Assembly: GCA_016190375.1 (NCBI GenBank)
Contig: JACPQR010000020.1
Span: 3,665-67,664, forward strand
Direction: 5' to 3'
DNA from: Deltaproteobacteria bacterium
GTDB lineage: Bacteria; Myxococcota_A; Polyangia; JACPQR01
Length of the DNA stretch: 64,000 nucleotides
A program made the translations under genes and the position numbers. Positions 1,232 through 61,616 of this stretch are shown here, in pieces (within the stretch, counting starts at the first letter, position 1; each line of letters begins with the position of its first letter). The notes under the pieces are model-generated. The model did not search any database. It saw nothing but the letters and a program-made list of their open reading frames with translations, and had not been told where the DNA came from.

Positions 1232-4200
1232 GCCGGATCCTGATCTTCTGCGACGGTCGATTGCCCTGCGAGCCAGGGGCGGGACCGGAAGCGCTCTGCC
1301 ACCGAGCATGGCAGATCGCGCACGAGGCGAGCCTGCTGGATCACGAAGTGGCGCTCCTCGTCCTCTGCAAGCCCCACGGGGTCGCCTGGCGTCACCGCTC
1401 GGTCCGGACGACCGACGAGTCGGGCCTGAGGATCTTCTGGGTCGACGAGCACCTCGGCCACGAGAGGCCGGAGGTGGTCCACCGGATCGTCGAGCAGCAG
1501 AAGCCGAGCGCGGTCGTCGGCGTCGGCTCTCGCGCCTCCTCGCTGGCCGTCAACTTCTGCGCGGAAAAGCCGCTCTGGGCCGACCTCGAAGGCGAGCCAC
1601 TGTGCGAGGCGCAGACGCTCGCGGCGCCGGAAGGCGACGCCGTCGCCTCGGACGCGTACGCCCACCTGGTCCCCATTCTGATGCGCGCAGACAAGCTCTC
1701 GACCCGCACGCGACGGCAGGCGATGGCGCTCATCGGTCAGCTCGCGCTGCTGGGCAGGCTCTCGCCGGAACGAGTGGGCTACTCGTTCGTCTCGACCATG
1801 CCGCCCTGCGTCTCGGAACAGGATCTGGAGCTGTTCGCCACTCCGGAGCGGGCGGCGCGCGGGGCCTCGGATGCGCTGGTGGTCCTGTGGAGCGCAGGCG
1901 CCTCTCCGCTCGCGGACCACGAGACCCTCCATCGGCTCCTCGACGGTGCGATGTCGAGGTTGCCCACGCTTCGCTTCGTCGCGCTGGGCGCGGATGGACC
2001 CGGCGGAAGCGGCGCCCAGGACACGTTTCGCGAGAGGGTGAGCCGGTCGCCGTGGCGGCACAGGTGCAGGTTCCTGGGTAGCGTCCTCGCCGCCGAGCTG
2101 CCGTCGATCTACGCGGGAGCAGACATCGTCCTCGACCTGGAACGGTGGTCCTCCGCGGGGCTTCTTGCGAGCAGCCCCGAGCTCGTACGGTGGCTGGCCG
2201 CGGGGCTGCCGGTCGTCTGCACGAGGCTCTCGGAGGTCTCGGTCGAGCTGGAGCGCGCCGGAATCGCGCTCGGCGCCGAGGAGGGCGATGCGTCCGCCCT
2301 GCAAGGTCACCTCGGGATGCTCGCGCGGGATCCGTCGCGTCGTGCGGCGATGGGAAGCGCCGCGCGAGCCTGGGTCGAGAAGAACCGCCGTGCCCTTACC
2401 GTCCTCCGGCCCCTCCTCGACTGGATCGCCGCGCCGGTCAGGGCTCCCGGTGCAGGCAAGGAGCTCGATCTGAGACCCCTCGACCGCCCGCTCGACTCCG
2501 CGCGGCAGAAGATCGCGCTCTTCCGGCAGACGGCGAAGGACGGCGGGGTGCTCGGCGCCGTTCGAGTCACGGCGGAGTTCGTCGCGCGCAAGGCGCGGAG
2601 CGCCACCGGCCGGTGGCTCGCGAGGAACGGCTACGACCTCGGGATACCCACCGTCGAATCCTCGGCCCAGCGGCCGCCGCCGCGCCCAAGAGGACCGTCT
2701 CGCCCGGCTGCCTACTGGCGAAGGCGATTTGCCCGACGCGACGGGCTGCCGACCGTCCATCTCCTGGTCATCGTCCGCGAGCACGCGGGAGCGCAGGCGC
2801 TCCGCTCGACGGTCGAGCACCTGGCCCAGCAGTACTACCCGCGCTGGGGGCTCGACGTCGTGGCGCCGCCCGCGTGCCCGGAGGAGCTCGCGCGCACGGC
2901 CGCTCGATGCGCCGAGGAGCTCCGCTCGGTCGGAGTCGCGGCGACCGTGATCGAGGGTCCCGTCCCGGTCGGGCACGGGTCGGCCTCGAGCTCCGACTTC
3001 CTGGGGCTCCTCGAGCCGGGCGTGCTCTTGCGGGCCGATGCGCTGTGCGAGCTCGTCGACGCCGCGATCGCACGCAAGGCGGACCTGGCGTACGCCGACG
3101 AGGTGGAGGTGGAGGGCGCCACGGGCGCAGCCCGGACGGTCTGCCGGCCGGCGTGGTCACCGGAGCTCCTCCTCGCGACTCACTACATCGGACAGCCCGC
3201 CCTCTGGCGGACGAGCCTCGTCCAGCGCTGCAAGGACCTGGACACGTCCGCGCCGCTCGAGGCGCTCGAGTACGACCTCTCGCTGCAGCTGAGCTCGCTG
3301 ACCGATCGGATCGCGCACGTGCCGAAGCCCCTCTGCTGGAGGTGGACCCCCGAGCGGAGCAGCATCGCGGAGCGAGTGCGCGGCGAGCAGGAGTGCAACC
3401 TCGCGCTGGAACGGTGCCTGGTCCGACACGTGTGGCGCTCGGGGCTCGACGCGGTGGTCGAGCGTGGCTCGAAGCCGGGCTCGTTCCGGACGCGACACCG
3501 GATCGAGGGCACGCCCCTGGTCACGATCATCGTGCCCACGCGCGACAAGCTCGATCTGCTCAGGGCATGCGTGGAGGGGATCGAGGCGCGCACGACGTGG
3601 CCGAAACGGGAGATCCTGATCATCGACAACGGCAGCCGCGAACGGCGGACGCGGTCGTACCTCGCGCGCTCGGGCCACGAGGTCCTCCGGTACGACGAGC
3701 CGTTCAACTACTCGAGGCTGCACAACAAGGCGATCCGCCACGCCAGGGGCGACTTCGTCGTGCTGATGAACAACGACGTCGAGGTGATCACACCCGACTG
3801 GATCGAAGCCTTGCTGGAGCACGCGCAGCGCCCCGAGGTCGGCGCGGTCGGAGCCAAGCTCCTTCACCGCGACGGGACCCTGCAGCACGCCGGGATCGTG
3901 CTGGGCGACAAGGGGTTCGTGTACGCGCAGGACTGGGCGCGAACCGCGGGCCAGGACCCGTTCCCCGACCTGGTCAAGAACTTCCTCGCCGTCACCGCGG
4001 CCTGCATGATGCTGCGCCGCGAGGTCTACCTGTCTGTCGACGGCCTCGACGAGAAGTTCGCCGTCGCCTACAACGACGTCGACCTCTGCCTGCGGCTGCG
4101 AAAGCGGGGCCTCAGGATCGTGTACACGCCGCACGCCGTGCTGTACCACCACGAGTCCGCGACCCGCGGCCGCGGAAAGCAGCCGGCGGCCGACGATCGG

Positions 4201-4311
4201 CTGCTCAGGAAGCGATGGCTCGACAGGCTCGGCCCCGATCCGTACCTGGGCGCCCTCGCGCCGGCGCGTCCGATCGAGAGGGGGTACAGGGGGCTCGACC
4301 ATAACCGTTAG
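1228..4311 (+). CDS. Multidomain glycosyltransferase (GT4-like + degenerate GT2 + GT2), ~1027 aa
   Basis: ATG overlaps upstream TGA (ATGA); ELVRWLAAGLPVVCT (GT4); DLAYADE; VTIIVPTRD, LMNND, YNDVDLCLRL (GT2). Confidence 0.88.
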   Translation: MSRILIFCDGRLPCEPGAGPEALCHRAWQIAHEASLLDHEVALLVLCKPHGVAWRHRSVRTTDESGLRIFWVDEHLGHERPEVVHRIVEQQKPSAVVGVGSRASSLAVNFCAEKPLWADLEGEPLCEAQTLAAPEGDAVASDAYAHLVPILMRADKLSTRTRRQAMALIGQLALLGRLSPERVGYSFVSTMPPCVSEQDLELFATPERAARGASDALVVLWSAGASPLADHETLHRLLDGAMSRLPTLRFVALGADGPGGSGAQDTFRERVSRSPWRHRCRFLGSVLAAELPSIYAGADIVLDLERWSSAGLLASSPELVRWLAAGLPVVCTRLSEVSVELERAGIALGAEEGDASALQGHLGMLARDPSRRAAMGSAARAWVEKNRRALTVLRPLLDWIAAPVRAPGAGKELDLRPLDRPLDSARQKIALFRQTAKDGGVLGAVRVTAEFVARKARSATGRWLARNGYDLGIPTVESSAQRPPPRPRGPSRPAAYWRRRFARRDGLPTVHLLVIVREHAGAQALRSTVEHLAQQYYPRWGLDVVAPPACPEELARTAARCAEELRSVGVAATVIEGPVPVGHGSASSSDFLGLLEPGVLLRADALCELVDAAIARKADLAYADEVEVEGATGAARTVCRPAWSPELLLATHYIGQPALWRTSLVQRCKDLDTSAPLEALEYDLSLQLSSLTDRIAHVPKPLCWRWTPERSSIAERVRGEQECNLALERCLVRHVWRSGLDAVVERGSKPGSFRTRHRIEGTPLVTIIVPTRDKLDLLRACVEGIEARTTWPKREILIIDNGSRERRTRSYLARSGHEVLRYDEPFNYSRLHNKAIRHARGDFVVLMNNDVEVITPDWIEALLEHAQRPEVGAVGAKLLHRDGTLQHAGIVLGDKGFVYAQDWARTAGQDPFPDLVKNFLAVTAACMMLRREVYLSVDGLDEKFAVAYNDVDLCLRLRKRGLRIVYTPHAVLYHHESATRGRGKQPAADDRLLRKRWLDRLGPDPYLGALAPARPIERGYRGLDHNR

Positions 4312-4366
4312 CAGTTAGCCATCAGCGATGGGTGCAGATCCCACCTTACACAACGGCTCCGATCTG

Positions 4367-4410
4367 TTCGTGGACGTGGTCGTAGACGTGGACGTGGACG
4401 GCTTCTCAGC
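4367..4410. repeat. Left arm of 44-bp inverted repeat (CGTGGA-type hexamer repeats) flanking four-helix-bundle gene
   Basis: 38/44 identical to reverse complement of 4784-4827. Confidence 0.9.
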
Positions 4411-4449
4411 AACGTTGCCAGCACTGCCGGCTCCTTCGGGAGGCCAGCC

Positions 4450-4788
4450 ATGTTCAGCTTCGAGAACCTCGACGTGTACAAGTGCGCGATCCAGTTCCCC
4501 GCTCAGGCCTCGACCATGGTCGGCACGCTGCCGAGTGGGCACGCGGCACTCGCCGATCAGCTCAAGCGAGCCTCCTTGTCGGTTCCGCTCGACATCGCGG
4601 AGGGTTCTGGCCGCACCGGCCAGAGCGACCTACGACGGCACCACGCGATCGCCCGAGGCTCCGCGATTGAGTGCGCCGCGATCCTCGATGCCTGCCGTGT
4701 ACTCGGTCTCGGCCGCGGCGACCGGATCGAAGAAGCCCGAACGTTACTCGAGCGGATCGTCAGCATGCTGTCGAAAATGTGCCGCTGA
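4450..4788 (+). CDS. Four helix bundle protein (23S rRNA IVS / TIGR02436-like family)
   Basis: FENLDVY...DQLKRASLSVPLDIAEGSGR...AIARGSAIECAAILD signature. Confidence 0.88.
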   Translation: MFSFENLDVYKCAIQFPAQASTMVGTLPSGHAALADQLKRASLSVPLDIAEGSGRTGQSDLRRHHAIARGSAIECAAILDACRVLGLGRGDRIEEARTLLERIVSMLSKMCR

Positions 4789-4827
4789 GAAGCCGACCAC
4801 GTCCACGATCACGTCCACGACCACGAA
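4784..4827. repeat. Right arm of 44-bp inverted repeat; overlaps the stop codon
   Basis: Reverse complement of 4367-4410; an outer 16-bp IR also exists (4328-4343 / 4875-4890, 15/16). Confidence 0.9.
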
Positions 4828-4896
4828 TATCACCCCCTGCGCACGGCTGTTCCGCCTCGTTTCCACCTGCAAACTGGGAACTGCACCCATCAGCGA

Positions 4897-5166
4897 CTAG
4901 CCCGGAAAGCGACTTTTCGCGCCTTGGCCCCTTGGCCCCGACGAGACGTCAGCAGCAACCTCCGACCCGTACGAGGCTAACGGGCCGACGAGCACGTTGT
5001 CGATCCGGTCCGAGACGAGGCGAAAGCCGTCCGACATCTCGTGGCGCATCGCGGTGATCTCGCCGCGCATGCCGACGAGCTGCTCGCGTATTGCCTCGAG
5101 GAGGGTGACCGTGGCCCCCTCGCCTCCGTCTCCGTTGCCACTTCCCGCCTTGCTTCGCCTGGCCAT
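4897..5166 (-). CDS. Small hypothetical coiled-coil protein
   Basis: LLEAIREQLVGMRGEITAMRHEMSDGFRLVSDRIDNV heptad-like pattern; start chosen at ATG 5166, longer ORF to 5196. Confidence 0.55.
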   Translation of the reverse strand: MARRSKAGSGNGDGGEGATVTLLEAIREQLVGMRGEITAMRHEMSDGFRLVSDRIDNVLVGPLASYGSEVAADVSSGPRGQGAKSRFPG

Positions 5167-5220
5167 CGACGAACAGTCTAGCAGGGCCTTCGACACCGCC
5201 CAAGGCCGGCCGGCGGAGGG

Positions 5221-5970
5221 TCAGTGCTCCGTCGGCGGGCGGGGCTCTTCCGCCGTCCGCGCGACGTGGCGGCGAATCGCGCCGTCCGTCCTGGCGCTCA
5301 GGAGCTCCCAGAAGAGCTCCGCCTCCGCCCGATCGTGCAGGGTCTCCTTCAGCACCTCGCGCAGCTCGGGCGCCCACTCCCTGTCCTCGGCCGATCGGAT
5401 GGCCTCCGCGACCAGCCGTATTGCCGACGCCTGGCGCTGCATCTCGGCTCGCTCGCGGCGCACGCGCAGGGTCGATCGCACGGTCCAGGCGATGAGCGCG
5501 ACGAGAATCAGCGCGAGCACGCCCGCGATGACCTCTCCCAGCTGGATCCCTCTCTTCGCGGTCTCGGCGACCCTCGTGGCCCGCAGGGCCGCCATCTGAC
5601 CGATGGTGGCCTCCCGTCCAATCACGCGAGCCGTCCTGCCGAGTGTCTGGTTCATCTTGTCGTCGAGCGAGTCCTCGATCGCCGCTCGCACGTGCTCGCG
5701 CAGCATCCGCTCGACTGCCGGGCCGAGCTCCCGGTCGATCCCCTTCGCCATGCCGGCCATCGTGGCCTGCGCGATCGACTCGGCGAGCAGCTCGGCTTCA
5801 CGTCTGATGGCCCGTGCCGCCTTCGAGTCCGCACGGCCGAGCGCGCCCTCGGCCGTGCCCCTGCCCGCCTCGCGAGCGAGCTGCCGGATGCTTGCAGAAC
5901 AGCCGGTGCCGGCGGAAAGGGCCAGCAGGATCGCCACCAGGGTTCGATTTCGCCGTCCGGATTGATGCAT
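5221..5970 (-). CDS. Hypothetical lipoprotein with helical region and one internal TM helix
   Basis: Signal peptide ending in Cys (LLALSAGTGC); TM IAGVLALILVALIAW. Confidence 0.7.
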   Translation of the reverse strand: MHQSGRRNRTLVAILLALSAGTGCSASIRQLAREAGRGTAEGALGRADSKAARAIRREAELLAESIAQATMAGMAKGIDRELGPAVERMLREHVRAAIEDSLDDKMNQTLGRTARVIGREATIGQMAALRATRVAETAKRGIQLGEVIAGVLALILVALIAWTVRSTLRVRRERAEMQRQASAIRLVAEAIRSAEDREWAPELREVLKETLHDRAEAELFWELLSARTDGAIRRHVARTAEEPRPPTEH

Positions 5971-6042
5971 GGCCGGTTGCGCTCGGCGATCTCAGCCGTA
6001 CGCATCGAACCCGACGATCGCAAGCGGGCCCCCGGCAGGTAG

Positions 6043-7351
6043 AATGCCGCCGGCCATGCGCCACGACGGGATGGGACGACCACGGGGCAGCTCCGGAGGT
6101 GGACCGCGCGCATGGCTCGAGCGCGCGCGCAGCGCCGCCGACGTCGCCCGAGGGGCGGTGAGCGCGCTCCAGAGGATCGCCGGCACACCGAGCTCGCCGC
6201 GATCGCGCGTCACCGACCCGCCAGGCGCACGCCCGCGCCCCTTCGGTGTGAACGTGGCCGGCTACTTCGCCTCGGAGAAGGGCGTGGGCGAGGCGGTTCG
6301 CTCGGACGTAAGGAGCCTCGTCGCGGCGGCGGTCCCGCACGTCGTCTGCGACTTCGCCGACACCTGCGGGTCGACGAATCCGATCGTCGTGCAGGCGCCG
6401 CCGGGGTCCGAGGTGTTCGCGTTCAATCTCGTTCACGTGAACGCCGATCAGACGCACGTCTTCGTGGGCGGCAAGTCCGCCGACTGGTTCGAGGGGCGCA
6501 CGAACATCGGCTTCTGGGTCTGGGAGCTCGAGGACTTCCCCTCCCGGTGGCGCTCGTGCTTCGAGTACTTCGACGAGATCTGGACGCCCAGCCGCTTCGC
6601 GCAGGAGGCCATCTCGCGCAGCTCGCCGGTGCCCGTTCTGCGGTTTCCCCACTCGATCGACGTGGATCGGGGCGCCGTCCCGAAGTGGCGTCGCGCCGAC
6701 CTCGGCATACCGGACGGGGCCTTCGTCTTCCTCTTCATGTTCGACTACTACAGCGTCTTCGAGCGCAAGAACCCCCTCGGGCTCGTCGAGGCGTTCCGGC
6801 GAGCGTTCCCGCGAGAGGCAGGGGTCTGGCTCCTCATCAAGACGAGCCACTCCGAGCACGACCGAGCGAACGCCGGCCGGCTGGCTCGCGCGATCCGCGG
6901 CGCGAACGTTCGCGTCATCGACGAGGTCCTCGGAAGCGAACGAACGCTCGGTCTGTACGACCTCTGCGACGCATACGTGTCGCTCCATCGCTCCGAGGGC
7001 TTCGGAATGACCCTGGCGGAGGCGATGTCGTTCGGCAAGCCGGTGATCGCCACGGAGTACGGCGGAAACGTCGACTTCCAGAACCAGGCGAACACGCTGA
7101 CCGTGCCGTTCGAGCTCCGGCCCCTCGAGGAGGACCACGGCCCCTACGCCAAGGGAAGCTCGTGGGCTCATCCGATCCTCGACCGAGCCGCGGAGCTCAT
7201 GCGGTTCCTGGTGAACAATCCTGCGAGCGCCGCCGCCCTGGGCGCGCGCGCTCGGGCCGACGTTCACCGGCAGCTCCATCCGCGCACCGTTGGCGCGGCG
7301 ATGGCGCTCAGGCTCGGTCTTCTCGCCGAGCGGCGGGGCGGCGGGCGATGA
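6043..7351 (+). CDS. Family 4 glycosyltransferase
   Basis: GVNVAGYFASEKGVGEA, IGFWVWELEDFP, RKNPLGL, SLHRSEGFGMTLAEAM...PVIATEYGG; start uncertain (5969-6070). Confidence 0.9.
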
Positions 7352-8817
7352 AGCCGACACTCCTCGTCGCTTTCGAGGCCCTGCGGATCCTCCTTCGAGT
7401 CGTCCTTCTCGCGCTGGCGCACCATCTCGCGCGCGCGAGCTACAGGGTGGTCAAGGCCGGCTGGCCGACCGCCGCCTCTCTGCCGCCCGCGACGGAGGAC
7501 CTTCCCGTCGTCACCGTGCAGCTTCCCATCAGGAACGAGTACTACGTCGCGGAGAGGGTCGTGCGCGCGACCTGCGGCATGGACTACCCGCCCAGCCGCC
7601 TCGAGATCCAGGTGCTCGACGACTCGGACGACGGGACCCGGCCCCTGCTCGAGCGGCTGGTCGGCGAGCTGTCCGCAAAGGGGCTGCCGATCCGCCTGTT
7701 GACCAGGGATCGACCGGACGGATACAAGGCCGGCGCGCTGAACGCGGGCCTCGCCGTCGCGCGGGGCGAGCTCGTCGCGATGTTCGACGCCGACTGCGTG
7801 CCTCCCCCCGATTTCCTGCGCTGGGTCGTGCCCGAGTTCGCCGATCCCACCGTGGGCCTCGTGCAGGTCCGCTGGTCGTTCCTGAACGGCGACCGATCCG
7901 TGTTGACGCGGCTGCAGACGCTCATCCTCGACGGGCTGTTCGCCGTCGACCAGCACGCCAGGAGCTCGTCGGGGATGCCCTTCCAGTTCAACGGGACGAG
8001 CGGCGTGTGGCGCCGGCGGTGCCTCGACGAGACAGGGCCCTGGCGCGGCGAGATACTCGCCGAGGACGCCGACATGGCCCTGCGCGCCTACCTCGGCGGA
8101 TGGAAGCTGTTGCACAGACCCGAGCGCGCCGTTCCGACGGAGGTCCCGGAGGACATGGCGGCCTTCCGGTCGCAGCAGCGGCGATGGGCACGCGGCACCG
8201 CGCAGCTCCTCAGGTCGCTCTTCCCTCGGATCCTGCGCTCCGGCGCGCCCGCTCGCGCCAGGCTGCTCATGCTCCTGCACCTCGGTCGCCACGTGATCGA
8301 CCCGCTCCTCTGCGCCTTGCTCGTCACGACCCCGTTCACGACGCTCTACGGGATGCCGACCCTGTTCGACTACGGAGTCCCGGCGAACGTGGCGACGGTC
8401 GGCGTCGTCCTCGCGGCGATCATCGTCTACTACGGGCTCGCCGTTCGCCGGGTCGGCGGCAACGCCACGAGGGTCCTTTACGCCCCGCTCGTCGTCCCGC
8501 TCGCGCTCGGCCTCGCCCCGCTGTACACGGTCAGCTTGATCCAGGGGCTCCTCTTCTCGGGCGGCGAGTTCGTCCGGACTCCGAAGCACGGCTCCGGCCC
8601 GAGCGCGACGGGCCCCATCTACCGCTCGAGGCTCGATCCGTTCTCGCTCGTCGAGGTCGTCCTCGGGCTGGCTCACGCCTTCTTCGCCCTCTCGGCCTTC
8701 ATGCGCGGCTACGTCGTCTATGCCTCCTTCTTCGCGACCGCCGCCCTGGGGCTCCTGTGGGTCGGCGTCGGTTCCCTGCAAGCCACGGTCGGCCTCGATC
8801 GGAGGACGGAGCAATGA
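7348..8817 (+). CDS. Processive CesA/CslA-like family 2 glycosyltransferase with C-terminal TM helices
   Basis: VTVQLPIRNE, YKAGALN, FDAD, AEDAD, QQRRWARG (D,D,D,QxxRW). Confidence 0.92.
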   Translation: MKPTLLVAFEALRILLRVVLLALAHHLARASYRVVKAGWPTAASLPPATEDLPVVTVQLPIRNEYYVAERVVRATCGMDYPPSRLEIQVLDDSDDGTRPLLERLVGELSAKGLPIRLLTRDRPDGYKAGALNAGLAVARGELVAMFDADCVPPPDFLRWVVPEFADPTVGLVQVRWSFLNGDRSVLTRLQTLILDGLFAVDQHARSSSGMPFQFNGTSGVWRRRCLDETGPWRGEILAEDADMALRAYLGGWKLLHRPERAVPTEVPEDMAAFRSQQRRWARGTAQLLRSLFPRILRSGAPARARLLMLLHLGRHVIDPLLCALLVTTPFTTLYGMPTLFDYGVPANVATVGVVLAAIIVYYGLAVRRVGGNATRVLYAPLVVPLALGLAPLYTVSLIQGLLFSGGEFVRTPKHGSGPSATGPIYRSRLDPFSLVEVVLGLAHAFFALSAFMRGYVVYASFFATAALGLLWVGVGSLQATVGLDRRTEQ

Positions 8818-10695: not shown

Positions 10696-12600
10696 CTACT
10701 CGCGGCCCCGACGCTTCTCTGCGATCTCCCGCAGCAGCGCGCGTCCTCTCGGGTCGCTCGGCGACTGGGTCGCGAACCTCCTTGCCTCGCGCTCGGCCTC
10801 GGCGAGCTCACCCGCGTCGAGCGCGGCGCGTGCCCAGAGACCATGCAGGCTCCGATCCGTCGAGCCCAGCCGGGACGCCTCGCGTAGCTCGACGAGCGCT
10901 TCGCGAGGGCGGCCGGTCGCGAGGCGCAGTCTTCCGCGCAGCAGGTGCACCGTCGCCGACTGCGGCAAGCGCTCCTCGGCCTCGTCCAGGGCCCTGTCGA
11001 GGTCAGACCATCGCCCGGACGTCGCGAGCACGTCGGCAAGCGACCGAAGCGCGCGCTCGCGGAGCCCGAGCTCCCCGACCACGTGCGGCGTCTCGACGGC
11101 CTTGCGATACCACCGCTCCGCTTCCCTCGGGCGGCCCGTTCGCTCGGCGAGCTTGCCCAGGTTCCACTGGATCGCGGTCCAGGCAGGCGCGAGGCGGTAG
11201 GCCCGGAGCAGCTCGCGCTCCGCCTCGGCCAGGCGCTGCACGCCCAGGTACGCCGCCCCCAGGTTCTGATGGGCTCGTGCCGATCCGGGAGCGTGAAGCA
11301 CCGCGTCCTCCCACAGAGCGACGTCGTCTCGCCACACGGCCGTCCGTTGCCAGGTCATGGCGGCGAAGAGCCCGACGAGTGTCACCGTAGCGATACGCGC
11401 CAGCCGCCGGGCGTCGGGACGGTCCAGCGAGGGGATCCAATCGCCGAGCGCCCAGCCCCCGAGCCAGCAGGCGCCGAGCGAAGCCAGGTACGAGTAGCGG
11501 TCGGCGACGGGATTCAGGAGCAGCGGCACGGCGGAGACGGGCAAGACTCCGATCCAGAACCATCCGAGCCCGAAGGTCACCGCGCGGCGCTTCCTGAATG
11601 TCCGGACCGTGAGCCAGCCGAGGGCCAGGATGACCACGGCGCCCGCAAGAACCGCGGAGGGCTCGCGGAACGGCGCGAAGTCGTACTCGGCCGAAAGCGG
11701 CCAGGGGACCACGAGCTTCACCGCGTAGAAGGCCAGGACCGACGCCGCATGATGGACTCGGACCTCGCCGTACAGGCTCCGCGCCGGGCGCGCAGGCTCC
11801 GAGCTCGCCGGCTGGAAGAAGCCCGCCGCCGCGAAGAGCGGGTGACGCTTCCCGGCGGCGGAGTCCCCGGCGATCTCGAGGCCAGCTCCGCCGGAGAGCG
11901 GTGAGAGCGACGGAAAGCCGAGGCGGGCCTGAAACGCCGTCCATGCACCGAACACGAGGATGAGGACGAGCCCGAGGGCGAGCACGCGCTTCTTCTCCGC
12001 GCGCGGCGCGAACGACGGAAAGCAAACGACGCACAGCGCGAGGAGGAGCGGCGCGACGAGGGCGCCCTCCTTCGAGAAGATCGCGAGCGCGGCGGAGATC
12101 GCCGCACCGACGAGCCAGCGCTTGCGACCGGTGGACAGCCAACGGCCGGCGACGAGGACCAGCGCGAGGACGAAGGCCATCGAGAGCGGGTCCTCGCGGT
12201 TCGACGCGTTGGCGACGGCCTCCACGTGGATCGGATGTGCCGCAAAGAGCGCCGCGGCCACACCCGCGACCTCGACCGAGCCCGACAGCTCGCGGAGCAA
12301 GAGGAACGCGAAGAGCGAGCAGATGGCGTGCCAGAGGACGCTCTGCAGGTGGTATCCGACCGGCGAACCGCCGGACAGCGCCCGGTCCACCAGGTGGGTG
12401 AGCACCAGGACGGGACGGCCTTGATCCGGGAACGCCTCGCGGAAGTAGCGAGAGGGCGCGAGCTCGGAAGGTCCCCGCGCCTCGTTCAGGAACCGATTCT
12501 GGACGATGTGCGAATCGTCGTCGTAGGTGAAGTCGAAGCCCAGCGTGCCCGCGTACGGGACGGTCGCCACGATCGCCACGACGAGCGCCCAGCGGCTCAT
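10696..12600 (-). CDS. TMTC-like GT-C membrane glycosyltransferase with C-terminal TPR repeats
   Basis: FTYDDDSHIVQN, LFAAHPIHVEAVA, FSKE, ADRYSYL, WRDDVALW, followed by TPRs. Confidence 0.85.
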   Translation of the reverse strand: MSRWALVVAIVATVPYAGTLGFDFTYDDDSHIVQNRFLNEARGPSELAPSRYFREAFPDQGRPVLVLTHLVDRALSGGSPVGYHLQSVLWHAICSLFAFLLLRELSGSVEVAGVAAALFAAHPIHVEAVANASNREDPLSMAFVLALVLVAGRWLSTGRKRWLVGAAISAALAIFSKEGALVAPLLLALCVVCFPSFAPRAEKKRVLALGLVLILVFGAWTAFQARLGFPSLSPLSGGAGLEIAGDSAAGKRHPLFAAAGFFQPASSEPARPARSLYGEVRVHHAASVLAFYAVKLVVPWPLSAEYDFAPFREPSAVLAGAVVILALGWLTVRTFRKRRAVTFGLGWFWIGVLPVSAVPLLLNPVADRYSYLASLGACWLGGWALGDWIPSLDRPDARRLARIATVTLVGLFAAMTWQRTAVWRDDVALWEDAVLHAPGSARAHQNLGAAYLGVQRLAEAERELLRAYRLAPAWTAIQWNLGKLAERTGRPREAERWYRKAVETPHVVGELGLRERALRSLADVLATSGRWSDLDRALDEAEERLPQSATVHLLRGRLRLATGRPREALVELREASRLGSTDRSLHGLWARAALDAGELAEAEREARRFATQSPSDPRGRALLREIAEKRRGRE

Positions 12601-55750: not shown

Positions 55751-56884
55751 TCACGACGGCCGTTGCCCCGCCACGCCGACGGCGAGGAAGGCGGCTCCGA
55801 GGTACAGCTCCCGCATCCAGGAGCGCGGCAAGCACCGCGAAAACGAGTCCCATGGGTGACGCACTCCAGCGCCCAGCGTCACGCCGTATGGGCGCGCAAG
55901 CGCCACGGCGGCACGTACGAGCCATGGAGGCCAATCATCCGGCATCTTCATGTCGAGCACCACCCAGCGGCCGCCAGGCGCCAGGGCGCGGGCGCCGCGG
56001 GCTATGATCGCGTCGAACTCGGGGCTCAATGTCAGGGCGAACGTCGACAGGATGCCATTGACGCCGGAGGGGAAACCGAAGCTCGCAGCGTCGGTCCGGA
56101 CGAGCTCGACGTTCGGCCAGCCTTCCAGGAGCACCCGGCGACGTGCCTGCTCGAGCATGGCCTCGGTCAGATCGACGCCGATGATCCGGCCGGCCCTCCC
56201 GACGGCCCGCTCGAGAAGAGGGAAGTTCGCGCCGGTGCCGCAGCCGATCTCCACGACGGTTGCGCCAGGCTGAAGGGCGAGGGCGTCCACCGCCATCTGC
56301 CGATAGCGGTCGATCCGGAAGCCGATGAGCCGGTAGAGCCGACTCTCGAAGTCGTAGCGCGCCGCGCGCTTCCCGTAGAGCCGGGCAACCTCGTCGGGCT
56401 CGAATGCCCGGTCGCCGCTGCGCGGCTCGGTTCGCGAGGATGCAGGCCCGAAGGCTCGCTCGAGCCTCGCGAGCGACCGCTCGACCTCGGTAGCCACCAG
56501 CCGCCGCACGAGCCCGTCACCGACACGGCCCAGGAGCCAGGGCGGATGGGTCCACTCGATTCGGACGTGAACACGGCTGCGACCCGGTCCCACGTCGTCG
56601 ACCCAAAGCGAGGAGCCGAAGTGAACCGGCCCCACCCGACCCTCGTAGTCGGCGCGCCGACCCCCGTCCCACGTCACGACCCGCTCGACCACTGGCAGAC
56701 GCAAGGGTCCCAGCTCCGCCACCCATTCGTAGCTCGCGCCGGGCCCGGTCCCGGCCGATGTCGTCACGCGGCCGCTCGCGTAGCCGGCGACGTAATCCGC
56801 GAAGCGCGCCGGATCGGTCGCGTACTCGAAGACAGGCCTCTGGTCGGCGGTCACATCGGCGCTTCTCTCGACGTGGGAGATCAT
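55751..56884 (-). CDS. SRPBCC (START-like) domain fused to class I SAM methyltransferase
   Basis: N-terminal VFEYATDP...FADY...VTWD; VVEIGCGTG, GVDLTEAML. Confidence 0.8.
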   Translation of the reverse strand: MISHVERSADVTADQRPVFEYATDPARFADYVAGYASGRVTTSAGTGPGASYEWVAELGPLRLPVVERVVTWDGGRRADYEGRVGPVHFGSSLWVDDVGPGRSRVHVRIEWTHPPWLLGRVGDGLVRRLVATEVERSLARLERAFGPASSRTEPRSGDRAFEPDEVARLYGKRAARYDFESRLYRLIGFRIDRYRQMAVDALALQPGATVVEIGCGTGANFPLLERAVGRAGRIIGVDLTEAMLEQARRRVLLEGWPNVELVRTDAASFGFPSGVNGILSTFALTLSPEFDAIIARGARALAPGGRWVVLDMKMPDDWPPWLVRAAVALARPYGVTLGAGVRHPWDSFSRCLPRSWMRELYLGAAFLAVGVAGQRPS

Positions 56885-56902: not shown

Positions 56903-58516
56903 TCACGGGCCCACGCACCGCGACGGGTCCCCCGCGCACCGCGCTTCCTCGTCGCAGCAGTCGGATGGATCGTCGCAACGCTCGCCTTCTTCGCCGCACT
57001 CTTCGAGAACGCAGCGACCCCAGTCGCATCGATTCGAGCAGCAATCGTCTCCTTCGCTGCACAGCTCACCGGAGACGCCACATCCCGCGATGTCCTGGCA
57101 ACGCGCCGGGCTGCCCGCGCACATCCCGCCGCAGCAGTCCGAGTCGCCGCCCGGGCAGAGCTCGCCCGCGACCTGGCAGCCGTCGACGGGGTCGCAGCGC
57201 CCGTCGAGACCGCACTGGCGGGTGCAGCAGTCGTCGGCGAGCGAGCAGAGCTCGCCCGTCACGAGGCAGGTACCGCCTACTGGCTGGCAACGCGGGGGAT
57301 CGCCGGAGCAGCGGTCGGAGCAGCAGTCGGCGTCGCCTCCGGGACACAGCTCGCCGATGACCTGGCACTCGTCGCGCGGCTCGCAGCGACCGTCGAGCGA
57401 GCATCGGTTCGTGCAGCAGTCGCTCCAGAGGGTGCATACCTCGCCTGCGACCCGGCAGGAACCGCCGATGTCGTTGCACCTTGCGGGGTCGCCCGAGCAG
57501 CTCCCGCCGCAGCAGTCGGCGTCTCCTCCGGGGCAGCGCTCGCCGGCCACCTGGCAGCCCTCGCGAGCCTGGCAGCGTCCGTCGATGCCGCACCGGTTCG
57601 TGCAGCAGTCGTCCCAGAGCGTGCACAGCTCGCCGGTGACGCTGCACGAACCGCCGATCTCCTGGCAGCGCGGCGGGTCGCCCGCGCATTGCCCGCCGCA
57701 GCAATCTCGATCTCCTCCGCGGCAGAGCTCGCCGGCGACCTGGCACGAGTCGAGCTCCTGGCAGCGCCCGTCGATGCCGCACCGGTTCGTGCAGCACTCG
57801 TCCCAGACCCCGCAGGTCTCACCGGCGACGTCGCAAGCCCCGCCGATCTCCTGACAGCGAGGCGGATCGCCGACGCACTGCCCGCTGCAGCACTGCTCGT
57901 CCCCCAGCGAGCAGAGCTCCCCGACGACGCGGCAGCCCTCGAGCGCCTGGCAGTGCCCGTCGATCCCGCAGCGCCCCGAGCAGCACTCGGACCAGAGCGC
58001 GCACGTGGACCCCGCCACGTGGCAGCCCCCGACGTCGATGCAGCTTCCGCCGCCACACGCGTCGTCGCAGCAGTCCGCGTCGACGGCGCAGACCTCGTCG
58101 TGCGAGGCGCACATCGGGGCGTCGCACAGCCCGCCGTGACAGCCCAGATCACAGCAGTCCGCGGCGCGAGCGCACGGACCACCCGCCTGCACACACTCCA
58201 GGTCGACGTCGCCGTCCCCGTCCGCGTCGCCGTCGCCGTCCGAATCCGCATCGGCGTCGCCGTCGGAGTCCGAGTCGGAATCGCCGTCGGAGTCCGAGTC
58301 GGAATCGCCGTCGGTATCGGCGTCCGCATCGGTGTCGCCGTCGCCGTCGGTGTCGCCGTCGGTGTCGCCGTCGGTGTCGCCATCCGCGTCGGAGTCGGAG
58401 TCGGCGTCGCCGTCCGCTCCGGCATCGGCATCCAGCGGCTCCAGGGGTCGCGGATCGAGATCACAAGCACCCAATGCAGCGAGGGACATGACCCACCGGA
58501 ATGCCCACCGACCCAT
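56903..58516 (-). CDS. Lipoprotein with acidic (D-X)n linker and 14 tandem six-Cys (C-C-CC-C-C) modules
   Basis: ALGAC lipobox; linker 58202-58432; alternating ~30/33-aa modules. Confidence 0.85.
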
Positions 58517-58628: not shown

Positions 58629-59237
58629 ATGTCGACCTTCGAGACCGTCGCGGCCGTCGCGGGAGCCCTCCTGACAATCGGCTGCGCGGTGTGGTGGGGG
58701 CTCTGGTACTCGCGCCGGACCAGGGATCGGCTGAACGAGCGAGTCGGGCGTGTCGAGGAGGCGTTTGCGAGGGTCGCCGCGCGCCTCGCGCTCGAGCTCC
58801 GCCACGGCGAGACCTACGTCCATCCCATGGCCGGTCGATATCCGGACTACCCGGTGCTGACTGGGACCCTGGGGGAGCGGCGGATCCGTGTCGTCGTCGA
58901 GTCGGAGTCGGCGGGGGAGTCCGGCAGGAGCGACCGCATGGCGATCGTCGTCTCGCCGAGGGCCGGTACGAGCTGGATTGCGCGGGGGCGGCTCCACCAA
59001 CGTCGCACGGATCTTCCCGGCGACGCCGTGCGCTCACTCGCAGAGCTCGACTCCGCCGTCCGGTCGATCAACCTCGACCATGAGGTACTGCGCGTCTTCC
59101 CCCGCGGCGATCGCTCGGGATCCGGACTCTCCGTGGACTACGAGCTCTTGATCGATCCTGACGCGCTCGAGCAGCTCGTCAACCGATGCGCGGCGCTCGC
59201 GGCCTTACTCGAGCAGCCTGGCGCCACGGTGAGCTAG
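58629..59237 (+). CDS. Hypothetical membrane-anchored protein
   Basis: N-terminal TM VAAVAGALLTIGCAVWWGLWY; clean ORF. Confidence 0.65.
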   Translation: MSTFETVAAVAGALLTIGCAVWWGLWYSRRTRDRLNERVGRVEEAFARVAARLALELRHGETYVHPMAGRYPDYPVLTGTLGERRIRVVVESESAGESGRSDRMAIVVSPRAGTSWIARGRLHQRRTDLPGDAVRSLAELDSAVRSINLDHEVLRVFPRGDRSGSGLSVDYELLIDPDALEQLVNRCAALAALLEQPGATVS

Positions 59238-59252
59238 ACTGCGGGCACCTCG

Positions 59253-61616
59253 GTGCCCAACCACCACTCGATCGTCGTCGCGTTCGGATCGCTGGGCGCG
59301 CGTGTGCTGGAGCGGGTCGGTCAGAAGGGCGATCTCGACCTCGGGCCGCTTCCCGATGAGGACCCGGGCCGCCAGCTCTTGCGAGTGATGGACGAGGCCT
59401 GCGCCCGGATGGCGCTCGGGAGCGTCATCCAGGCAAGTGATCCGGCCGATCCGGGCGAGCCCGTGCTCGACGTCGTCGTCGTCGCCGACCTCGGTGAGCC
59501 CGGGATCGCGGAGCGGCTCGCGCGGTTCATCGCGGCGCTCAGAGCTCGCCTCCTCGCGGACTTCTCGCACCTCTTCGGAGCGCACAACCCGCGCTTCGCG
59601 CTGTGCGCGGTCCTCGCGCTCACCGGTGCCCGCGATCCGGGACGGCGCGGCGCCCTTCGAGCGGGCCTCGAGGGGCTCGAGGCAATCTCGGCTCGCGCCG
59701 GCGAGTACGAGCCCTTCGGGCGCGTGTTCCTGATCGAGGACCAGAGCGGGCGCTACCTGCTCCCCCCCGCCGAGCGGGAGAACGCGGTCGCCTCGCTCGT
59801 CACGGTGCTGCGTTCGGACGCGGGCCGCAGGACGGCCGGGCTCGGCGCCCCACCGGACCCGCAGGGGCTGTTCGTCGCGTTCGCCGCGGCGACCCTCGAG
59901 GTCCCATCCGCAGACCTGCAGCGCTTCTGCGAATCCAGGACGGCCCGGGGTCTGCTCGAGGAGCTGCGGCGAGGCAGCGACCTCGGCATCGCCGACCGAC
60001 AGGCGCGAATCCAGCCGTATCTCTTCGATCGCGGCGCGCTGGACCAGCGGCTCGGGCTCAAGGACGGCGCCGGCGATCTCGAGCGCATGGTTCGCGACGC
60101 GCGACCGCGCACCGAGTGCCCGGAGCTCGAGCCCCATGCGACGCCGGAGGCGATCCGGGACTCGCTGTACGGATGGGACTGGTACGCCCGCCAGGAGTCG
60201 GAGATCCGCAGGTTCAGCGAGGAGCTCGAGCATTTCCGGATGCCCGCGCTCGTCGCGGAGGTGGACTCGCAGGGAACCAAGCTCGCCCGGGAGCTGCCCG
60301 CGGCCCTCGCGAAGGCCGTCGACGGCTGGGTCTGGTCCGGGCCGAGGGGCTGGGCCGATGCTCGTGACTGCCTCGAGGACCTGCGGCTTCGCACCGAGAA
60401 GGCCGAGGGGGAGCTCGCCTCGGAGATCCGACGGGAGGTCCTGCCCGATTTTCCCTCGTTCGAGAGCTTCGAGGAGCGCTTCCGGGCCCTCAGGGCGGGC
60501 TCCGAGAGGCGGCCGCGGCCGGCCCGGCTCTGGTTCTTCGGTGCCCTCTTCACACTGGCCGCCACGGCGATCCTGCACCCGTTGCCGAAGTGGATCTGGG
60601 TCCGGCTTCTCTCGGGCCGCGCGCCGCTGCTCACACGGATGCTCGTCGACCCCATGGCGGTCGAGCTCGGACCGGTCGGCCATGCCTTCCTCGACCGCCC
60701 CTGGGTCCTCGCCTGGCTCGCACTGGTCACCGGGAGCCTCGTGGCCTGGCGCCTCCGCAACCTGGCCCGCGATCGACACGCGGAGCTCGGCGCGATGCGT
60801 GACGAGATGGGCTACCGGCTGCGCGACCTCGTGGAAGGAGATCGGGGCTCGGTCCTCGCCTACTACCTCTCGCGGCTTCGCTTCTCGTACCGGTTGTGGG
60901 AGATGCGCATCCTGCGTCGCTACCTGGACGCGATCCGGGGCGAGATCGAGCGGCTCGAGACCGTCAGGCTCGCGCTCGACCAGATGGACCTCGCCTACCG
61001 CGAGGAGGAACGACGGCTCTCGCCCGAGCCCGCCGGGGTGAGCGTCAGAGCGGCCGGTCCAGCACCGACTAGGGCGCAAGACGCGAACGTCCTTTACCGC
61101 ACGGTCGCGGGAGGGCCGCTGTTCGAGGCCATCCACCGCGCGGACGCACAGCCTGCGGACGCGCTGGCCGGCGCGTTCTTCGCGGAGCTCGCGGATCCGG
61201 AGCCCCCGCCGTGGCGCGACGCCGCACCGTTCGCCGATCCCCTCCGGATCGACGCCTTCGTGCGCTCGCTTCTCGGTCCCCGCGAGCGCCGGGCGCTCCG
61301 GCCATCCAGCCCCCAGCCAGTTCGCGATGCGCTGTCGTCCTTTCTCGCCGACGTAGGGGAGAAGCTGGCGCCCGGGCTCGAGGTGTACCGGGAGCAGATC
61401 ACCCTCGAGCCCCGCCGCCTCCTCCTGGTTCCCTCGGGTGCAGAGCCGGTGGTGGACGAGTGCATCGCGGCCGTCCGCCGGACGGGCGCGGACGCATTCG
61501 GCTCGGGTCTGCTCGTCAGCGGCTGTTCGCTCCCGAGCGAGTGCGTCCACCTCGTCGTCCTCGAGCCCGGGATCCCCCTACGAGCGATCCGAGCGCCTGC
61601 CGCCGATGCCGTATGA
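59253..61616 (+). CDS. Degenerate tubulin/FtsZ-like (Tubulin_2-type) protein with two TM helices
   Basis: IVVAFGSLGARVLERV, VVVVADL, RVFLIED, FVAFAAATLEVP; TMs LWFFGALFTLAATAIL and WVLAWLALVTGSLVAW. Confidence 0.55.
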   Translation: MPNHHSIVVAFGSLGARVLERVGQKGDLDLGPLPDEDPGRQLLRVMDEACARMALGSVIQASDPADPGEPVLDVVVVADLGEPGIAERLARFIAALRARLLADFSHLFGAHNPRFALCAVLALTGARDPGRRGALRAGLEGLEAISARAGEYEPFGRVFLIEDQSGRYLLPPAERENAVASLVTVLRSDAGRRTAGLGAPPDPQGLFVAFAAATLEVPSADLQRFCESRTARGLLEELRRGSDLGIADRQARIQPYLFDRGALDQRLGLKDGAGDLERMVRDARPRTECPELEPHATPEAIRDSLYGWDWYARQESEIRRFSEELEHFRMPALVAEVDSQGTKLARELPAALAKAVDGWVWSGPRGWADARDCLEDLRLRTEKAEGELASEIRREVLPDFPSFESFEERFRALRAGSERRPRPARLWFFGALFTLAATAILHPLPKWIWVRLLSGRAPLLTRMLVDPMAVELGPVGHAFLDRPWVLAWLALVTGSLVAWRLRNLARDRHAELGAMRDEMGYRLRDLVEGDRGSVLAYYLSRLRFSYRLWEMRILRRYLDAIRGEIERLETVRLALDQMDLAYREEERRLSPEPAGVSVRAAGPAPTRAQDANVLYRTVAGGPLFEAIHRADAQPADALAGAFFAELADPEPPPWRDAAPFADPLRIDAFVRSLLGPRERRALRPSSPQPVRDALSSFLADVGEKLAPGLEVYREQITLEPRRLLLVPSGAEPVVDECIAAVRRTGADAFGSGLLVSGCSLPSECVHLVVLEPGIPLRAIRAPAADAV

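Follow-up and report, generated by a model that had tools for sequence, protein, structure and literature searches.

A predicted lipoprotein of a Myxococcota bacterium built from fourteen tandem knottin-type modules

A 64,000-nucleotide stretch of a Myxococcota genome (contig JACPQR010000020.1 of assembly GCA_016190375.1; hereafter, the window) carries on its minus strand, at 56903..58516, the complete coding sequence of P0001, a cysteine-rich protein of 537 amino acids plus stop. Behind a lipoprotein-type signal peptide and an acidic spacer, P0001 consists of 14 six-cysteine modules with the spacing of the inhibitor cystine knot (ICK) peptides, or knottins. The knottin-type reading of these modules is well supported by a sequence profile, by structural models, by the pattern of cysteine loss in relatives and by the presence of an oxidising system in the genome. 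As to the whole protein, we consider it reasonably probable that P0001 is an exported lipoprotein whose 14 modules work intact, as a polyanionic rod at the cell surface or elsewhere in the envelope.

The module array occupies residues 108-534 (56915..58195, minus strand) and would hold 42 disulfides. A regular-expression parse fits all 14 modules, of about 30 residues each, to the form C-x6-C-x5/6-CC-x3(5)-C-x4-6-C, and 84 of the 85 cysteines of P0001 fall within these consecutive modules, the leftover one being the lipobox cysteine C18. This bears out the first-pass annotation, which had described 14 six-cysteine modules after a lipobox and an acidic linker; the coordinates it gave, 56903-58200, do cover the module array, while the gene extends to 58516. 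The loop spacings are 6/5/3/4 in three modules, 6/5/3/5 in five, 6/6/3/6 in another five and 6/5/5/6 in the last one, and the linkers between modules measure only 4-6 amino acids (QEIGGA, QELDS, QAREG, NDIGGS, EPRDE and others). When the 433 residues of the array were shuffled 20,000 times, no shuffle ever contained more than one module, so the pattern is far beyond chance.

Modules with the 6/5/3/5 spacing form an A type (..[13 protein letters not shown]) and those with 6/6/3/6 a B type (..GGD.DCCGG.C.GDPPRC). The alternation of the two types in duplications of about 63 residues, as previously proposed, holds exactly: five A/B double units of 63 amino acids, free of insertions and deletions, span residues 165-479 (57080..58024, minus strand), in agreement with the 189-nucleotide period (4.8 copies, 57094-58004) reported by Tandem Repeats Finder. 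Compared pairwise, the units share 51-71% amino-acid identity, with a synonymous divergence (dS) of 0.37-1.09 and a ratio of nonsynonymous to synonymous divergence (dN/dS) of 0.29-0.60, which indicates that they are old units kept under purifying selection and not recent copies. In composition, P0001 has 16% Cys and 22% Asp+Glu (120 acidic residues, 89 of them Asp), 31 Arg and no lysine; the array itself is very acidic, carrying a net charge of -52, and likewise lacks Lys. Relatives, unlike P0001, do contain Lys.

For the comparison with known folds, a module profile (A1) was built from 137 aligned modules, 13 from P0001 and 124 from database relatives. Run against all PDB chain sequences, A1 gave 42 matches at E<10, of which the top 18 were all ICK peptides. 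E-values were 5.5e-5 for Dg12a, 7.8e-5 for omega-atracotoxin-Hv1a, 9.2e-5 for scytotoxin Sth1a and 1.3e-4 for the spinach trypsin inhibitor SOTI-III, and omega-conotoxins were matched at E between 2e-3 and 2e-2. Chains of the epidermal growth factor (EGF) and defensin types, though abundant in the PDB, were absent from the matches at E<10, and an LDL-A repeat receptor appeared only at E=1.

Structural models point the same way. The AlphaFold2 model of module 4, computed with alignment A1, reached a predicted local distance difference test score (pLDDT) of 88, and Foldseek placed SOTI-III first among its structural neighbours, with a template-modelling (TM) score of 0.75, a root-mean-square deviation (rmsd) of 1.9 Å and 43% identity. 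Atracotoxin, Aps III, nemertide and Dg12a were matched as well, with colipase at ranks 4 and 6 (TM 0.60-0.63). A four-module AlphaFold model (pLDDT 87.4, predicted TM score, pTM, 0.70) is confident also across the linkers, and its modules superpose at 0.7-1.0 Å on nemertide alpha-1, hairpinless atracotoxin and scytotoxin; in the superpositions of both models the cysteines coincide with those of the solved knottins. According to DSSP, in both the single- and the four-module model each module is closed by a C-terminal beta-hairpin (EE----EE) that bears Cys V and VI. The single-module prediction and the module profile search had both been suggested as checks in the first-pass annotation, and both lead to knottins, in support of its knottin-type lipoprotein.

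Further evidence comes from the cysteines that relatives have lost, surveyed in approximately 1,600 modules of 176 family proteins aligned to the module profile. Cys I and Cys IV are jointly absent in 13 distinct modules of relatives, leaving G-x-x-C...C-x-S-x-x-C...C, and Cys II and Cys V are jointly absent in three (in P0057, P0120 and P0076). No other pair is lost in any of these modules; the apparent classes "CCCCxx", "CCCCCx" and "xCCCCC" were discarded as alignment artefacts of long loops and not true losses. At the sequence level, this co-loss is the pattern to be expected if I-IV and II-V are disulfide partners. The module form devoid of I and IV corresponds to a hairpin with two disulfides that has been proposed to be the core of the knot. 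A III-VI disulfide threading the ring formed by I-IV and II-V is likely in the P0001 modules, given that their models superpose on knottins at 0.7-1.0 Å.

The genome also encodes one VKOR homologue (C129:3159-3593) and six DsbA-like (Thioredoxin_4) genes, so that an extracytoplasmic oxidising system is available; DsbB was not found in this 88%-complete assembly. The DsbA-like genes are arranged as two tandem triplets, at C169:67341-69149 and C208:50226-52019, and each of the copies on C169 shows one in-frame TGA in the open-frame read-out.

Two other ways of folding such modules were considered and rejected. An EGF-like pairing (I-III, II-IV, V-VI), which the first-pass annotation had named as a result that would speak against a knot, is contradicted by the co-loss of I with IV and of II with V, and no EGF chain occurs among the PDB matches. 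The dickkopf-like alternative that it had also named (a Dickkopf_N or colipase fold) finds no Dickkopf_N match in the Pfam scan of P0001 and no Dickkopf chain in the PDB at E<10, and colipase ranks under knottins.

The N-terminal part of the protein is of a different nature. Residues 1-18 (58463..58516, minus strand) read directly as a signal peptide with a lipobox, [17 protein letters not shown]|C18; it is short, of the lipoprotein type, and ends in LGA|C18, the lipobox being assigned by pattern match only. The Gly at -2 is unusual, but shared with a paralogue on contig C233 (LIGSC), and Asp occupies position +2; the mature protein could reside in the inner membrane, in the outer membrane or on the cell surface. 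P0001 has, in its sequence, the lipobox of signal peptidase II substrates, and lipidation is predicted. A polyanionic (D-x)n spacer follows (residues 19-107; 58196..58462, minus strand), with 42 acidic residues among its 89 and with tandem periods of 6 and 24 nucleotides in its DNA (58202-58429). The acidic linker of 77 amino acids described earlier fits the D-x run from D29 to D105, while the full stretch from C18 to the first module cysteine measures 89 amino acids. In the NCBIfam scan, the only matches of P0001 were of low complexity, to staphylococcal SD-repeat adhesins and far under their cut-offs.

This tether is not particular to P0001. At least 82 open reading frames (ORFs) of the genome place a lipobox cysteine ahead of 60 residues with at least 35% Asp, and more than 100 match only the N-terminal ~100 residues of P0001, that is, signal and acidic spacer. 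In this lineage, lipoproteins encoded all over the genome seem habitually to carry a polyanionic tether, and the same layout (hydrophobic stretch, [GAS]-C, D-rich spacer) recurs in many relatives of P0001. The tether being generic, the array is the specific part of the protein.

Curated models do not name that part. The Pfam scan of P0001 yielded nothing that reaches cut-off (Toxin_19, 14.8 against 23.2 bits; Conotoxin, 14.9 against 25.1), and no curated NCBIfam model, including the Myxococcus cysteine-rich repeat TIGR02232, matched. A word-indexed search found 22 relatives, the best 41-46% identical and, where a name is given, named "hypothetical protein". The module profile, on the other hand, run against 1.84 billion cluster representatives, retrieved 1,535 proteins at E≤1e-3, 510 at ≤1e-10 and 55 at ≤1e-30, with 5-18 profile-matched modules per chain in each of the 150 best-scoring members. 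The bacterial relatives whose database names were looked up are each a "hypothetical protein" from metagenome-assembled genomes (MAGs) titled "Deltaproteobacteria bacterium". One member, P0103 (EukProt, Stephanoeca diplocostata), is a choanoflagellate transcript of 1,403 amino acids with an N-terminal sulfatase and 13 C-terminal knottin-like modules; it may be truly eukaryotic or stem from a bacterial contaminant.

Taken by genome, the distribution is patchy: modules occur in 16 of 41 genomes (that of the window plus 40 of its class, E≤1e-5) and in 16 of 201 sampled genomes of the phylum (E≤1e-6). The window's genome is a 7.8-Mb assembly whose nearest relatives among the genomes searched are at class level, and a whole-protein search of genome contigs found no close relatives of P0001. 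The assembly lacks rpoB, and matches to its GyrB, drawn from many phyla, are only 51-57% identical. The same genome holds four further arrays, on contigs C233, C209, C186 and C100. The one on C233 is 50% identical to P0001 and repeats its plan of lipobox, SD-spacer and array; that on C209 has an N-terminal domain unlike that of P0001; C186 carries a 1,062-aa open frame, and C100 a lipoprotein of 259 aa. A long Gly/Asp repeat is inserted in the second loop of one module of the C100 lipoprotein. One of these paralogues lies near an M74 murein endopeptidase gene. The papers searched by full text contain no description of this family of tandem-array lipoproteins, and bacterial knottins are mentioned in them only once, in a single line of the KNOTTIN database paper. 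The fold itself is already known, and P0001 is one more member, with a very regular A/B build, of a large family, and not a singular protein.

These observations lead to a proposal for how P0001 works. After Sec export the protein would be lipidated at Cys18, and the mature form would be tethered to a membrane through its (D-x)n spacer, a flexible and strongly acidic stretch of about 89 residues. Each of the 14 mini-domains would be locked by three disulfides (I-IV, II-V and III-VI), made by the VKOR/DsbA-type oxidising system of the cell. The array would then most likely function uncut: a polyanionic rod, semi-rigid and resistant to proteases, that is situated at the cell surface or elsewhere in the envelope and serves as a scaffold or a multivalent binding array. 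Several lines of evidence favour an array that works intact: the short linkers, which have no conserved cleavage motif, together with the confident multi-module model; the fusions to extracytoplasmic domains and the kept module order in relatives; and the age of the repeat units and their purifying selection. The fusions were found by scanning the 20 longest relatives, in some of which the array is joined to FecR (as in P0044), a PD40 propeller, TSP3 repeats, a MopE-type motif, DUF7151 or a sulfatase; in none of these 20 is it joined to an enzyme that degrades cell walls. The order of modules is kept in relatives such as P0006, P0009 and P0010, where unlike module variants hold the same places. 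P0001 is probably neither a toxin nor a peptide precursor.

Gene context brings in a different possibility. We surveyed eight relatives, together with the paralogues of the window's own genome, for neighbouring extracytoplasmic function (ECF) sigma factor genes. In four of the eight, P0013, P0014, P0015 and P0016 (loci L114, L119, L116 and L117, respectively), an ECF sigma gene of the same strand is found no more than two genes away, and at the P0013 and P0014 loci a FecR-like anti-sigma is also present, apparently in one operon. In the window's genome, the C100 paralogue closes a four-gene minus-strand cluster (C100:2778-6413) formed by an ECF sigma (5796-6413), a zf-HC2-type anti-sigma (4339-5781), a 259-aa protein (3582-4361) and the small array lipoprotein (2778-3557), and about 2 kb separate the C186 paralogue from a sigma gene. 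Since the 7.8-Mb genome has 36 sigma70_r2 genes, any one gene would lie near one of them by chance in some 3% of cases, so the association of sigma genes with arrays is far above chance. An accessory protein of ~290-340 aa is common to the P0014 and P0015 loci.

The array could, on this evidence and on that of the FecR-array fusion P0044, be a component or output of ECF sigma/anti-sigma envelope signalling, either as a sensor partner or as a stress-induced envelope protein. For P0001 we regard this as unlikely, if less so than the other alternatives. No sigma70_r2 match exists on contig C162, which holds the window, so the ECF association, though valid for some family members, does not extend to P0001. 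The window gene is instead flanked by a methyltransferase fusion and a small membrane protein, the sigma-linked relatives are just 33-34% identical to P0001, and proximity is no demonstration of mechanism.

The idea of a polyprotein precursor, cut between its modules into free knottin peptides directed against prey or competitors, had been among the options of the first-pass annotation, and of these it is now the least supported. Multi-knottin precursors exist in plants and animals, the modules resemble toxins and inhibitors, and the lineage belongs to the Myxococcota, all of which would suit such a role. However, the 4-6 aa linkers share no protease site or dibasic motif, and the four-module model (pTM 0.70) runs confidently through them. 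The predicted lipid anchor and long tether also speak against release, as do the fixed order of non-equivalent module variants in P0006, P0009 and P0010 and the relatives in which arrays form the tails of larger proteins. In addition, the strong negative charge of the modules sets them apart from most knottins that target pores or channels. Taken together, cleavage into peptides appears improbable.

Slightly more doubtful still is a multi-headed protease inhibitor that shields the cell's own envelope against secreted proteases or controls these. Foldseek did rank a knottin trypsin inhibitor, SOTI-III, first (TM 0.75, 43% identity), and an Arg directly ahead of Cys VI is kept in 11 of the 14 modules. 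Against this, the profile alignment shows that the reactive-site loop of SOTI-III is longer and differs in sequence, no protease gene is linked at the loci examined, and the likeness lies at the level of the fold, common to knottins of many functions.

Least probable of all is a binder of metals or cations, either through Cys thiolates, as in metallothioneins, or through the 120 acidic residues holding Ca2+ or Mg2+: the Cys and Asp+Glu contents, the module charge of -52 and the MopE-type metal motif or TSP3 calcium-binding repeats beside the array in some relatives would suit it, but export would place the protein in a compartment where VKOR/DsbA oxidases act, its cysteines are lost strictly in the pairs expected of disulfides, and the fixed ICK spacing comes with confident knottin-like models, which also disfavours the metal binding that the first-pass annotation had set against disulfides. 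Cation binding by the acidic surface could nevertheless coexist with the rod that we favour.

On a wider view, which we put forward tentatively and rate as rather unlikely to hold in full, prokaryotes would long have used the knottin module, in abundance, as a building block of extracytoplasmic proteins, and it would be homologous, not convergent, to the toxin and inhibitor knottins of eukaryotes. The arrays would catch its evolution under way: at equivalent places, ICK modules with three disulfides and hairpin modules with two would be replacing each other. A part of the family would form, with ECF sigma and anti-sigma factors, a hitherto unrecognised device for sensing at, or protecting, the envelope. 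Knottins are valued as ultra-stable scaffolds for drugs and imaging, and nearly all work on them has concerned animals, plants and fungi. With its more than 1,500 sequence clusters, the bacterial family would enlarge the sequence space known for the fold, and its arrays would supply natural examples of how to join modules rigidly. Relatives without the I-IV disulfide offer a way to test how the knot evolved. Finally, in bacterial cell biology the arrays draw attention to a class of Myxococcota envelope proteins not yet studied, a part of which is linked to ECF sigma factors.

Regarding the gene itself, P0001 has a single possible start codon, because an in-frame stop lies two codons upstream. 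The GC content of its frame is 0.69, 0.61 and 0.855 at codon positions 1, 2 and 3, in a genome of 70% GC; a third position of 0.855 against a second of 0.61 is the coding signature of this genome, and the overlapping plus-strand ORF of 1106 aa was accordingly rejected as spurious. A home-made gene caller based on third-position GC miscalled some Cys-rich genes and was applied for context only. A scan for sigma-70 promoters and terminators returned zero sites.

Downstream, and starting 18 nucleotides past the stop of P0001, a minus-strand gene (55751..56884) encodes a fusion of an SRPBCC (Polyketide_cyc2) domain with a class I S-adenosylmethionine (SAM) methyltransferase and is probably co-transcribed with the P0001 gene. 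Upstream, a small membrane-anchored protein without Pfam match (58629..59237, plus strand) is divergently transcribed and is adjoined by a 787-aa ORF (59253-61616, plus strand), also without Pfam match. All-against-all BLAST of neighbour proteins found no homologue of the 58629..59237 protein beside related arrays, and linked only the FecR-like proteins and one accessory protein, both of the sigma-linked subfamily. No functional hint for P0001 is evident from either adjacent gene. A conserved operon partner of the window gene was rejected, as the neighbours differ across 12 related loci. In another Myxococcota genome of the same class (locus L017, on contig C146 of G027), two array genes each adjoin a secreted protein of ~216 aa without Pfam match (6799-7449 and 11662-12315); the two proteins have no mutual BLASTP similarity at E≤1e-3.

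Several known systems invite comparison. Metallothioneins gather free thiolates around metal and are usually cytoplasmic, whereas P0001 is predicted to be exported and its cysteines appear paired by their pattern of loss. The SD-repeat stalks of staphylococcal Sdr/Clf proteins resemble the P0001 spacer in placing a dipeptide D-x repeat between anchor and functional region; P0001, however, would be a Gram-negative lipoprotein anchored at its N-terminus, and the likeness is one of composition only. Dickkopf_N (PF04706) is passed by the relative P0054 (28.1 bits) through the C-terminal third of the model, but Dickkopf_N and colipase are ten-cysteine domains, unlike the six-cysteine modules of P0001.

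The only curated models with any signal are Toxin_19 (PF08088), Conotoxin_I2 (PF17557) and Omega-toxin (PF06357). Several relatives pass the whole-protein cut-off of the conotoxin I-superfamily models through summed weak module matches (51 bits for P0054, 70 bits for P0051), although I-superfamily conotoxins have eight cysteines against the six of each P0001 module. As far as the consulted part of the KNOTTIN database paper goes, knottin-type sequences in bacteria are predicted there from sequence alone, with no experimental structure, and for these "bacterial knottins" it describes neither tandem arrays nor a lipoprotein build, neither the size of the family nor its gene context (Postic et al. 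2018, PMC5753296).

The closest parallel is with the ICK knottins themselves (omega-atracotoxin-Hv1a, U3-scytotoxin-Sth1a, Dg12a, nemertide alpha-1, omega-conotoxins and SOTI-III). They share with the P0001 modules the C-C-CC-C-C framework, the loop lengths and, outside the cysteines, a G in loop 1, an acidic residue before CC and S/T after it, and the module models superpose on them at 0.7-1.9 Å with 35-43% identity. These knottins are eukaryotic secreted proteins of one or two domains, mostly cationic, that act on ion channels or proteases, whereas P0001 joins 14 such domains in one bacterial and strongly anionic chain with a predicted lipid anchor.

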